NCBI GenBank assembly: GCA_039621445.1
Contig: CP154954.1
Coordinates: 18,338,642 to 18,402,641, forward strand
Origin: Euglena gracilis
Lineage: Eukaryota
Direction of reading: 5' to 3'
DNA length: 64,000 bases
Below the pieces are notes generated by a model. It did not search any database. It worked only from the letters and a program-made list of their open reading frames with translations, and was not told the origin of the DNA. Positions 40,001 through 41,374 of this stretch are shown piece by piece (position 1 is the stretch's first letter; each line of letters opens with the position of its first letter). A program made the position numbers and the translations under genes.

Positions 40001-41374
40001 AATGCCAAAAAAAAAAGCACTTTTCGGCGCCTTTGGCGCGAAAAGTATATCCCACCCCCCTCCGGGGGCCCACCGGGGGCTCGGTGGGACCCACCCACCA
40101 CACCCTACCTCCCCTCCCCCCCCCCCCACGACTAAAAAAAAAAAACCCCTAGTCCACCCACCCACCAACCCACCCGCTCGCCTAAAACCACTCTAAATCA
40201 GCCGGCAGGGGTTTTTATATTTTTACGGCCCAGTCTTCGGAAGGGTCTGGCTGACCCATGGCACACCCCACCCACCCCCCACCCCCACGCGCGGGGGTAG
40301 GGGGTCCAGCGGCCACGGCCCAACCAATTCTCGCCCCCCCCCTCCTGCAGGACGGGTCACGCAAATGTTAAATGAGGGGGGGGTCGCAAAGACCAAACTT
40401 TCGAGGAGAGCAAAAGAAGCCAACTCCTCGCAGCGTCCATTTGGATACTAATCCTCCCCAATTACAAAAAAAACCTGTCCCCCAGAAACTGTCACCTGAC
40501 ACCGGTCCGTGTTTCCCAGGGGGCGACCCCCCAGCGCAGGATAAGAATATAATATACCCACATCCAAAATAGGAATATAATATACCGGCAACCAAAATTG
40601 GGTGGAGAAAGGTATTTAACTTGGAAATTTCTCAAAACGCAAAATCAGAACTTTGTACCGCTTCCATGCCTTATTCCAGGTTCATACTGCTGCAATTAAT
40701 GTTATATACATACTGATCACATACTGATCAGTTGACTGCAATTTCGGTATTTTTTTGAAGCCACAAACAAGGTCTAGGGCAAAAATCCAATAAAAATCCG
40801 GCAGGTTTCTTGAAAAGAGACCAGGCTCTAAAAAAAAAACAAAAAAAATGCCCAATATACGTTGATGGTTAAAATAATAAAACAATGAAATAATAAATGG
40901 TAAAATGATAAATAATAATCATAATAAAATGGCAATTTCAGGGGACTCTTTCAATGTACGCACCAAACCTACAGTTCATGAAAAGCGAAAATTAAGCGGA
41001 AAAACAACACAAAATTCACTTTTGATGCTAAGCTTGGGAAAAAGTTGTTGTTGTTTTCAGTATGACAACATCCCTCGGTTATCTTCTGGGGAGCCCAACC
41101 GACGGTAGGGTGCCCTCGCATTCAAATCTGTCTGCTGATGCCTGGCCACCACGCACTGGCGTCGTCGTGGCTGCAGGCCACACTCCGCAGGTTGTCCCGG
41201 AAGTTCCATTTCCCACAGAAGGGCCTTCCCGGGCTTCTTTTTAAGACCCCCGGAGGAATCTCCCCAACCACCCAGCCCGGTCGAAGAGTCTTCTGAGGTA
41301 AAAAGAAGCCCGGGCTTGCCATCCTCGGCCTGCGCCAATGTGCGCTTGAGGACCCGGTCCAGCGGGTCGCTCAT
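3900..41374 (-). CDS. Multi-exon gene A (span): SPRY/B30.2-like - 2x[SH3-like + MIB/HERC2] - Pro-rich - SAM - ADP-ribosyltransferase (R-S-E clade)
   Basis: GC-rich exons joined in frame by manually reconstructed paired-end introns. Start MSDPLDRV at 41374, stop TAG at 3900-3902. Several internal small exons (e.g. 9.4-12.9 kb, 20.6-22.9 kb, 33-34.3 kb, 38-38.8 kb) are unresolved, so continuity as one gene is inferred. Confidence 0.7.
4397..4561 (-). CDS. ART catalytic exon: QRFIWSGFTSTSL...SAFPNEREILL
   Basis: FTSTS (S-T-S) and E-x-E (NERE) motifs of R-S-E ADP-ribosyltransferases; both flanking introns fit the CAG/CTG rule. Confidence 0.92.
5277..5366 (-). CDS. ART exon TTLLQPADQSITLYRRTTLQPNHLQLYVE (catalytic Arg, TLYR)
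   Basis: LYR motif; intron 4562-5276 (GGCCAGGGG...CCCCTGACGCC) gives in-frame VEK|QRFIW. Confidence 0.85.
5462..5825. mobile_element. Copy of the 1429-1856 MITE
   Basis: Long near-identical stretches shared with 1429-1856. Confidence 0.85.
7158..7172 (-). CDS. 15-nt micro-exon (FLWV) of the ART domain
   Basis: Upstream donor GGTCACGGATGC pairs with GTGTCCCTG; its own donor CAGGTCC pairs with GGACCTG near 5372-5378; frame is kept on both sides. Confidence 0.55.
7653..7708 (-). CDS. ART exon DNKEDLACFMPFIKALLV
   Basis: Intron 7709-9215 ends pair (GAGCATGGGCTGGTTT / AAAGCAGCCAATGCCTGC); in-frame NRACRE|DNKE. Confidence 0.8.
9216..9353 (-). CDS. ART N-terminal helical exon ...ITKALLWLYSLESWVYQECNRACRE
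   Basis: Matches the 'LY(T/S)xE..Y..LNxAxR' helix preceding ART cores; AG acceptor at 9354-9355 is tentative. Confidence 0.8.
10300..10830 (-). CDS. Three small exons: 10745-10830 (AAPALEY...NRLQHH), 10636-10665 (ENFQGHQKSS), ~10300-10368 (TYVWVKVD...)
   Basis: Introns 10666-10744 and 10369-10635 both fit the CAG/CTG rule and join the pieces in one open frame; end of the last exon is uncertain. Confidence 0.6.
10374..10632. mobile_element. hAT-like MITE (CAG...CTG) with perfect 8-bp TSD ATGTGGAA
   Basis: TSD at 10366-10373 and 10633-10640; family members at 30391-30674, 39884-40151, partial at ~34547 and ~37840-38095. Confidence 0.9.
12126..12761. repeat. (CCCA)n + long (CA)n microsatellite
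   Basis: Directly visible. Confidence 0.98.
12995..15023 (-). CDS. SAM domain exons: 14957-15023, 13444-13526, ~12995-13100
   Basis: Spliced ADLEALLASLHLSPYAISLARAG|YNSVEALALASKEDLLRHGVLEPQAIL|LVKRLRE fits the SAM pattern; paired intron ends. Confidence 0.8.
15693..18433. mobile_element. TIR element with 8-bp TSD carrying the RT fragment
   Basis: GGCTGCTAGACTTTACTTGGCCCCCGG / CCGGGGGGGGCCAAGTAAAATTTAGCTGCC; flanks CTCTAAAT and TTCTAAAT. Confidence 0.8.
15830..18390 (+). mobile_element. Decayed, 5'-truncated non-LTR retrotransposon (CRE/SLACS-like RT + Zn knuckle + restriction-like endonuclease)
   Basis: SAPGPSG, LIPLAKKDGGLRPIAVG, DVSNAFNTIDR, GVHQGD, WYLDDG, CPLC...ERHN, RDADLL...AVDVTI across frameshifts and stops. 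Confidence 0.9.
20487..20560 (-). CDS. Pro-rich linker exon GPPVPPSPAPAPTPAPVAGISFAPS
   Basis: Donor CAGGGCCTTGCC pairs with acceptor GGCCAATGCCCTG 5.46 kb away; in frame into the SAM exon. Confidence 0.7.
22290..22428 (-). CDS. Probable exon after MIB/HERC2 repeat 2 (YRQTDL...SQTPGKVSAP)
   Basis: Peptide similarity to 29340-29459; boundaries approximate. Confidence 0.6.
23004..24690 (-). CDS. Repeat 2: SH3-like exon (24544-~24690), 33-nt exon (24074-24106), MIB/HERC2 exon (~23004-23128)
   Basis: GTVKRYDAAEERYLVEF...HWVP...FNVAL|GGDRFTRWHVG|ARVVRGETWQWGDQDGGAGTVGVV; RVVRG..W.WGDQDGG.G..G.V is the MIB/HERC2 signature. Confidence 0.85.
24917..25442. repeat. (CATA)n/(CATG)n microsatellite
   Basis: Directly visible. 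Confidence 0.98.
27252..28105. mobile_element. Asymmetric-ended repeat (GGT...GGT) with sub-terminal IR and hairpin; short copy 14156-14269
   Basis: Splits a MITE (~27088-28360) related to the uninterrupted ~9387-9759 copy; both ends shared with 14156-14269. Confidence 0.75.
29340..29459 (-). CDS. Probable exon after MIB/HERC2 repeat 1 (NRFNNANYRQTDL...SQSPGKASAP)
   Basis: Paralogous peptide at ~22290-22428 (NKVHTADYRQTDL...SQTPGKVSAP); boundaries approximate. Confidence 0.6.
30391..30674. mobile_element. hAT-like MITE, same family as 10374-10632
   Basis: CAGGGTTTTTT...AAAAACCCCTG; TSD GGCGAGTC/GGTGAGTC. Confidence 0.88.
30758..32260 (-). CDS. Repeat 1: SH3-like exon (32112-~32260), 33-nt exon (31638-31670), MIB/HERC2 exon (~30758-30882)
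   Basis: GTVTRYDATDRMHLVEF...HWVP...FNVAL|GGGKYTRWHVG|TRVVRGKTWQWGDQDGGAGNVGIV; paralogous to repeat 2. Confidence 0.85.
31012..31322. mobile_element. Second hAT-like MITE family (CAGGCTTGTGCTTA...AGCACAAGCATG)
   Basis: Perfect TSD TTTTGGAC; copies at 2468-2746 and, interrupted, ~48095-49545. Confidence 0.88.
32285..32536. mobile_element. TA-flanked MITE, CCA(T/G)TGCTTA family
   Basis: TA|CCATTGCTTAGC ... GTTAAGCACTGG|TA; relatives at ~26134, ~36189-36523, ~47245-47515. Confidence 0.75.
35323..35383 (-). CDS. Duplicated 61-nt exon LEGNCRFAVSLCHTGQMVEY, copy 2 (alternative or dead)
   Basis: Part of a ~280-bp direct duplication (~35146-35410 / ~35749-36009); acceptor CTG changed to ATG. Confidence 0.45.
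35920..35980 (-). CDS. 61-nt exon LEGNCRFAVSLCHTGQMVEF (end of SPRY-like domain), copy 1
   Basis: Donor CAGAAGGTTGGC (intron starts 37016) pairs over 12 nt with GTCAATCTTCTG; in frame. Confidence 0.75.
37017..41374 (-). CDS. N-terminal exons 41316-41374, 41148-41224, 39692-39819, 37478-37595, 37017-37158 (SPRY/B30.2-like beta-rich domain)
   Basis: In-frame joins through paired introns; pattern GRHSVRLRI...FAVGAV...YLG...SVG...GSTVVMTV...LTITVDG...FAVSL resembles SPRY (domain call by eye). Confidence 0.65.
39884..40151. mobile_element. hAT-like MITE, same family
   Basis: CAGGGGTTTTT...AAAAACCCCTA; TSD GGCCACCC/GTCCACCC. Confidence 0.85.
41230..41312. mobile_element. 83-bp MITE inside the first coding segment of gene A
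   Basis: 13-bp TIR CGGGCTTCTTTTT/AAAAAGAAGCCCG; flanks GGCCTTCC/GGCTTGCC. Confidence 0.85.

Follow-up and report, generated by a model that had tools for sequence, protein, structure and literature searches.

Just downstream of the start codon of a large gene in Euglena gracilis lies a short insert with long, perfectly matched ends, and this locus raises the question of whether the insert is an intron, which machinery would remove it, and whether it began as a transposon. The window analyzed here is a stretch of 64,000 nt (GenBank assembly GCA_039621445.1, contig CP154954.1, positions 18,338,642 to 18,402,641); positions are those of the window, and the gene lies on its minus strand. Nonconventional introns make up the majority of Euglena introns. 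They have been described by the code 5'-N3-CDG-/-CH'G-N5-6|R (Nomura et al. 2025, PMC12501133), and earlier work had given a pairing rule that joins positions +4 to +6 with positions -8 to -6. Both the 3-nt and the 5-nt spacer matter for nonconventional splicing, and introns with CGG and CCG as the paired elements were spliced in E. gracilis knock-ins (PMC12501133). Such introns can measure only 30-36 nt. They are described as leaving by a non-spliceosomal route, in the form of a full-length circle and not a lariat (PMC11282704). On the evidence of a transcriptome protein, the insert is a real first intron of this Euglena gracilis gene, missing from the mature message at the junction predicted for it.

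Evidence for removal comes from P0001 (eukprot:EG_transcript_2083, accession EP00667_Euglena_gracilis_P002083), a protein of the Euglena gracilis transcriptome that was the single match for the exon-2 open reading frame (ORF) in a search of a large protein collection and ranked first for the 33-residue exon-2 peptide in a full HMMER scan. It opens with MSDPLDRVLKRTLAQAEDGKPFCGKWNF (in a longer form, MSDPLDRVLKRTLAQAEDGKPFCGKWNFRDNLRSVACSHDDASAW...), the part that spans the junction is ...AEDGKPFCGKWNF, and its N-terminus thus reads MSDPLDRVLKRTLAQAEDGK|PFCGKWNF, which is the predicted junction. Residues 1-21 matched the window with 100% identity at 41374-41312 in tblastn, and the protein aligned to 41374-41316 and then from 41223 onward, skipping 91 nt. 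Excision of 41315-41225 fuses ...GATGGCAA to GCCCTTC... and encodes ...AEDGK|PFCGKWNF, the product that a preliminary description of this DNA had proposed and that P0001 carries. That description had also placed the ATG 59 nt ahead of the insert, in agreement with the sequence (ATG at 41374-41372, exon 1 of 59 nt at 41374-41316), and P0001 starts at this same ATG. It had named two outcomes that would speak against it, the use of another junction and a start downstream of the element; neither was seen at the protein level. Exons 1 and 2 agree with P0001 at all 44 whole codons (19/19 and 25/25); across the gene 825 of the 859 whole codons compared agree (96.0%), and 790 of 806 do so in the 30 well-mapped blocks. 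Exon 2 is open in all three minus-strand frames (ORFs 41057-41470, 41122-41370, and 41079-41240), so that being in frame is by itself no evidence for the junction. Two other matches to the exon-2 peptide, P0002 and P0003, were repetitive, unrelated proteins and were set aside.

It could be argued that the insert is not spliced at all, that the transcript came from an allele or a near-identical copy without the insert, and that the copy in the window is disrupted. P0001 is indeed 96%, not 100%, identical over the 859 codons, and P0006, a Logan ORF from another data set, is a read-through of the same locus in which both repeat arms are unchanged and one residue differs inside the intron. This contig carries the insert, and so a DNA or pre-mRNA form of it exists, which does not address splicing. 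However, the remaining 30 intervals are likewise missing from P0001, so the transcript behind it is spliced, the insert matches the splicing code exactly, and exons 1 and 2 are identical to the protein. Retention of intron 1 would yield a product of only 105 residues that terminates within intron 2. We regard a disrupted, unspliced copy as extremely improbable.

The ends of intron 1 place it within the nonconventional code and, at the same cut, within the GC-AG borders. The cut can shift by 0-4 nt downstream without changing the mRNA because GCCC is present at both ends, and the five equivalent placements begin and end with GC-AG (the first), CC-GG, CC-GC, CG-CC, and GG-CC. One of the five, GCC-CGG ... 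CCG-GGAAG|G at 41315-41225, agrees with the code, and it is also the one with GC...AG. It has the N3 spacer followed by a CDG element, the complementary CH'G element followed by N5 and a purine, and a stable end helix, and at the protein level it is absent at the junction. Classical nonconventional introns are defined by having no GT/GC-AG borders, and in this respect intron 1 departs from them. Since the code-compliant placement is the GC-AG placement, we filed intron 1 in the hybrid or intermediate ("both") class; in E. agilis, 0.8% of the introns have signals of both kinds, with pairing like that of nonconventional introns, and were judged likely to be processed by the nonconventional route (PMC12501133). 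Intron 1 is a further member of this already described hybrid nonconventional class, and the phenomenon itself is already in print.

The inverted repeat at the ends of intron 1 is perfect over 16 nt (CCCGGGCTTCTTTTTA). Its two arms are the only matches to the 16-nt sequence in the window at up to two mismatches, with a chance expectation of 0.11, and none of 100 shuffles gave two. In the preliminary description it was a 13-bp repeat; the repeat is real, and its length is 14 nt when counted from CGG and 16 nt in full. The same description gave GC-AG borders for the cut at +4/-6, in register with the paired ends, a 6/8 match between two 8-mers that flank the element, and a terminal AG that falls within the intronic 8-mer at positions where the copies differ (GGAAG against GGCAA). 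All three hold as statements about the sequence. Intron 1 folded at -48.8 kcal/mol (z = -4.24, with none of 200 shuffles equally stable). Its inner 55 nt gave z = 0.20, with 107 of 200 shuffles as stable, and are thus unstructured, so the strong fold is due to the terminal repeat alone. The z-score of the antisense strand was similar to that of the sense strand. A hairpin spanning the whole intron had been considered and was dropped, given that shuffles fold as well as the inner 55 nt and the two strands score alike. In the proposed mechanism, the ends of the pre-mRNA would pair as a 16-bp helix that sets CGG (+4 to +6) opposite CCG (-8 to -6), and the RNA would then be cut 3 nt upstream of CGG and, at the other end, 5 nt downstream of CCG, in front of a purine, to give the junction of P0001. 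That the 3-nt spacer starts with GC and the 5-nt spacer finishes with AG would be a coincidence.

Table 1. Positions of intron 1, its terminal elements, and the surrounding gene in the 64,000-nt window
Feature	Position	Strand	Description
Whole gene	3903..41374	-	32 exon blocks, collinear with P0001; homolog of EG_transcript_2083
Exon 1, coding part	41316..41374	-	MSDPLDRVLKRTLAQAEDG and the first two bases of K; 19/19 whole codons identical to P0001
Upstream 8-mer resembling a target site duplication	41313..41320	-	GGCAAGCC; 5 exon nt and 3 intron nt
Intron 1, 91 nt	41225..41315	-	Absent from P0001; read through in Logan ORF P0006
Terminal helix, 5' arm	41299..41314	-	Intron +2 to +17, CCCGGGCUUCUUUUUA
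CGG (CDG element)	41310..41312	-	Intron +4 to +6, preceded by the 3-nt spacer GCC
CCG (CH'G element)	41230..41232	-	Intron -8 to -6, then the 5-nt spacer GGAAG, then the exon-2 purine G at 41224
Terminal helix, 3' arm	41228..41243	-	Intron -19 to -4, UAAAAAGAAGCCCGGG
Downstream 8-mer resembling a target site duplication	41222..41229	-	GGAAGGCC; 5 intron nt and 3 exon nt; 6/8 identical to the upstream copy
Exon 2	41148..41224	-	Last base of the K codon, PFCGKWNFRDNLRSVACSHDDASAW, first base of the next codon; 25/25 whole codons identical to P0001
Intron 2, 1328 nt	39820..41147	-	Nonconventional (GGC-CAG ... CTG-CCCCC|G); position common to the paralog

The gene that hosts intron 1 spans about 37.5 kb, and of its introns, which number at least 31, hardly any are GT-AG. 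Three of the 31 mapped intervals (7, 8, and 20) have at least 4 mismatches each and are unreliably mapped, with 14 mismatches in interval 8. Intron 1 has the only reliable GT/GC-AG placement; a GT-AG placement is also listed for the unreliable interval 8, and the other 29 intervals have no GT/GC-AG placement. Strict agreement with the code was found for 13 of the 31 intervals, 11 of them with CAG/CTG and 2 with CGG/CCG (introns 1 and 25). Since most intervals lack GT/GC-AG and 13 follow the code, the nonconventional route is the norm for this transcript. Within this set no other intron is nearly as short as intron 1 (91 nt; the others measure 343-5463 nt), and none has so long a terminal repeat (16 nt, against 3-10 nt).

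The internal signals of intron 1 also bear on which machinery removes it. Conventional introns of E. gracilis start with GTGTG, a 5' splice site that pairs with U1, and contain a pyrimidine tract rich in C (Gao et al., PMC11170887). The 5' end of intron 1, GCCCG, matches this consensus at 2 of 5 positions (G+1 and G+5), and the 20 nt preceding its AG contain 7 pyrimidines (4 of them C), which is not a C-rich tract. The lack of a pyrimidine tract and the poor match of the 5' splice site make nonconventional removal likelier, and together with the helix-anchored cut and the nonconventional neighbors they suggest that intron 1 is most likely removed by the nonconventional rather than the spliceosomal route.

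Comparison with a paralog suggests when the intron arose. P0007 (eukprot:EG_transcript_755), a paralog from E. gracilis, has 1232 residues, the same set of domains, and 48-57% identity to P0001. A 179-residue ORF from a Logan contig, P0004, was found by HMMER scan, with a cluster mate, P0005, from a second contig; over its residues 86-127, P0004 matches the N-terminus of P0007 with 98% identity. At the intron-2 position the spliced paralog reads DTVAY-CVRSMDSTT, P0004 and P0005 read DTVAYW-PGSEGD, and the read-through of the window reads ASAWW-PG. Both contig ORFs also have 85 upstream codons that end in a C-rich stretch. Because they read into intron 2 and carry this upstream sequence, P0004 and P0005 derive from unprocessed sequence that keeps intron 2, and they run on without interruption across the intron-1 site (EEGKPFRGKWNF). 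These alignments suggest an intron 2 common to both genes and, for intron 1, a gain in the lineage of this gene after the split from EG_transcript_755, or a loss in the other.

Taken together, the observations are probably best read as a nonconventional intron of the hybrid class, likely removed by the nonconventional route and probably gained after the split from EG_transcript_755, with any transposon origin left aside. Several points weigh against this reading. The junction is known at the protein level, from a transcriptome protein 96% identical overall, and GC-AG lies at the same cut, so that spliceosomal removal would give an identical mRNA. Intron 1 has G at +5, which is the single prominent 5' feature of E. 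gracilis GC-AG introns (PMC11170887). The contigs of the paralog are known as ORF translations, and partly processed RNA could already have lost the intron; loss in the paralog and gain here are indistinguishable without an outgroup.

Two of these points favor the alternative that intron 1 is a conventional GC-AG spliceosomal intron, or is removed by both systems, and that the hairpin merely brings the splice sites together. In addition to the GC...AG placement, which yields the observed mRNA, and the G at +5, its 91 nt fall among the lengths known for GC-AG introns of E. gracilis, the shortest of which has 44, and removal by both systems was allowed for in the 2016 study of E. agilis (PMC4770533). 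However, the C-rich pyrimidine tract is absent (7/20 pyrimidines), just 2 of 5 positions of the GTGTG consensus match, and the cut coincides exactly with the helix-anchored nonconventional code. The intervals of the gene offer no further reliable conventional placement, and the hybrid introns of E. agilis pair in the manner of nonconventional introns (PMC12501133). We therefore consider spliceosomal or dual removal improbable and retain nonconventional removal as the preferred reading.

The origin of intron 1 is a separate matter. The preliminary description had it as an 83-bp MITE (a miniature inverted-repeat transposable element) acting as intron 1, and P0001 bears out the intron; the MITE is not borne out, given a single copy in 64 kb, no relative in the metagenomes scanned, and a target site duplication (TSD) that is marginal at 6/8. 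It had further offered the locus as a possible snapshot of a transposon-derived intron in conversion to an intermediate or spliceosomal one. The combination of paired ends with GC-AG borders holds. The idea of conversion is not new, as a MITE-like origin of nonconventional introns and the existence of intermediate introns have been a published hypothesis since 2013 (PMC3935182; also PMC12501133, reviewed in PMC11282704). In the literature searched, as far as it was available, no paper was found that links nonconventional introns to an identified repeat family.

Under a MITE origin, a true MITE copy with terminal inverted repeats (TIRs) of about 14 nt (CGG...CCG) would have inserted into a coding exon and duplicated an 8-bp target, GGCAAGCC; the nonconventional machinery would excise the element, and the downstream target copy would later have mutated to GGAAGGCC, creating the AG. 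This proposal concerns origin and agrees with nonconventional removal as the mechanism. The TIR is of the MITE type, perfect over 16 nt on a short, non-coding element of 87 nt, the longest in the gene (others 3-10 nt), and it encloses an unstructured 55-nt core. The 8-mers match at 6/8 in a frame fixed by the code (5 exon and 3 intron nt compared with 5 intron and 3 exon nt), and the element plus one copy amounts to the 91 nt removed. Nothing is present at the site in the paralog contigs, another TIR-bearing repeat family is present in the window, and a newly gained nonconventional intron in gapC of E. agilis has 8-nt direct repeats (PMC4770533).

Set against these points is the failure to find relatives of the element. 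No second copy of the insert or of its interior was found in the 64-kb window, either by sensitive blastn or by a search with the 16-nt arm. A metagenome scan with a strict paired-repeat pattern gave 0 matches, and a relaxed pattern gave three loci (L001-L003) with unrelated interiors that do not align with the element, which were rejected as chance hairpins. The flanking repeat is also equivocal. The other 11 introns with an N5 spacer matched at 26 of 88 8-mer positions, and all 12 matched at 32 of 96 against 32.1 expected, which gives no general TSD signal in the gene and no excess. A match of at least 6/8 somewhere among the code-compliant introns of the gene arose in 8.2% of shuffles (P = 0.082), which is marginal. 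A parse with the 16-nt TIR and a perfect 3-nt AAG repeat fits equally well, and the choice of parse was made after the fact; this one removes 90 nt and does not restore the frame. Finally, paired ends are required of every nonconventional intron, and selection at the RNA level can explain the repeat. A transposon (MITE) origin of intron 1 is thus unproven, and we hold it to be a possibility on the unlikely side. A match to Rfam MIR2670 scored 23.1 bits against a gathering score of 117 and was rejected.

Origins that involve no transposon were also weighed, for example, filler DNA from double-strand-break repair that left an 8-nt repeat, with a helix that formed by chance or was sharpened by selection for nonconventional splicing. 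The authors who described the gapC intron in 2016 read its 8-nt repeats as a trace of break repair (PMC4770533), and neither the window nor the metagenome scans yielded a second copy of the element. However, a perfect 16-bp repeat would be very unlikely in random filler, and none of 100 window shuffles gave such a pair. This origin seems to us more doubtful still than a MITE.

The numbers in the code allow one further conjecture, which we think has little chance of being correct. Its geometry may mirror the staggered cut of a transposon, in that spacers of 3 and 5 (sometimes 6) nt add up to a target duplication of 8 bp (or 9 bp). If so, the code would remove an element with CDG...CH'G ends together with exactly one copy of the target and thereby restore the coding sequence, and intron 1 would be a young example (83 + 8 = 91 nt), with the E. 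agilis gapC intron (PMC4770533) as a second. We infer this link between 3 + 5 and 8 here and did not meet it in the literature searched, as far as that was available, which does not establish that it is absent from print. The lack of a general 8-mer signal in the gene argues against the idea, unless its traces do not last.

Repeats of other kinds were seen in the window. One element with 16-20-nt terminal inverted repeats (CCTATGTCCAATGACC...) occurs at 1430-1856 and 5469-5824, with a fragment near 42521, which means that TIR-bearing repeats do exist here. The copy inside intron 29 and the one downstream of the gene share 92% identity over 342 nt; the family is unrelated to intron 1, and no clear target duplication could be read. 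A minus-strand open frame of 1038 residues at 60473-63586 contains a reverse-transcriptase domain (RVT_1, E = 2.2e-15) and therefore belongs to a retroelement. Within intron 2, a tandem array with a 10-nt period and about 34 copies (TGGCCATTTT) occupies 39201-39550.

The product of the host gene has two MIB_HERC2 domains, and matches to a SAM domain and to an ADP-ribosyltransferase-like C-terminus were weak and below the Pfam cutoffs. The local ORFs around intron 1 had no Pfam match, and no placement in the window was found for residues 217-232 of P0001. Upstream of the gene, 45791-45922 (minus strand) shows 82% identity to the exon for the ADP-ribosyltransferase-like C-terminus of this protein and probably marks where a tandem paralog has its 3' end. 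Two copies of the exon for LEGNCRFAVSLCHTGQMVE lie on the minus strand, at 35923-35979 and 35326-35382, about 600 nt apart; each matches the transcript protein with 100% identity, a local duplication within the gene. Just upstream of the ATG, 41388-41440 (minus strand) holds a C-rich run with CAG at 41406-41404 and a second CAG at 41390-41388. By analogy, this run has the look of the C-rich acceptor at which the spliced leader is trans-spliced in E. gracilis.

The value of intron 1 is in the specimen rather than in the discovery of a phenomenon. The case is clean and very short: its terminal repeat is perfect, an 8-nt repeat may flank it, one cut carries both kinds of splice signal, and a paralog seems to be without the insert. 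As such it would be a convenient substrate for separating the routes of removal and for testing a MITE origin. With the introns from which the code was described (PMC12501133) it shares the 3-nt spacer, the pairing of CGG with CCG, the 5-nt spacer, and an exon that opens with a purine, but its helix is 16 bp long compared to a 3-bp core. Nonconventional features likewise go together with GC/AG at the same cuts in the "both" class of E. agilis introns (PMC12501133) and, in E. agilis ACOI 323, in intron 9 of the hsp90 gene (Milanowski et al. 2016, PMC4770533); intron 1 differs from both in being from E. gracilis, in another gene, and at a site that is seemingly empty in the sister gene.

Comparison with introns of recent gain is closest for intron 4 of gapC in E. 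agilis ACOI 323 (PMC4770533). That insert is missing from close relatives and is flanked by an 8-nt direct repeat; intron 1 seems to be missing from the paralog, and its flanking 8-mers match at 6/8. The gapC intron, however, was compared among strains of one species, and its repeat is given simply as eight nucleotides, whereas intron 1 was compared with a paralog of 48-57% identity and has an imperfect repeat. The MITE-derived introners of Micromonas, dinoflagellates, and the tunicate F. borealis (PMC11282704) resemble intron 1 in being short, non-coding inserts with TIRs that are removed from the mRNA, and they have a flanking repeat, which in intron 1 is a possible one. Introners differ in being spliceosomal and in having many near-identical copies, whereas intron 1, found as a single copy in the window, follows the helix rule of euglenids.

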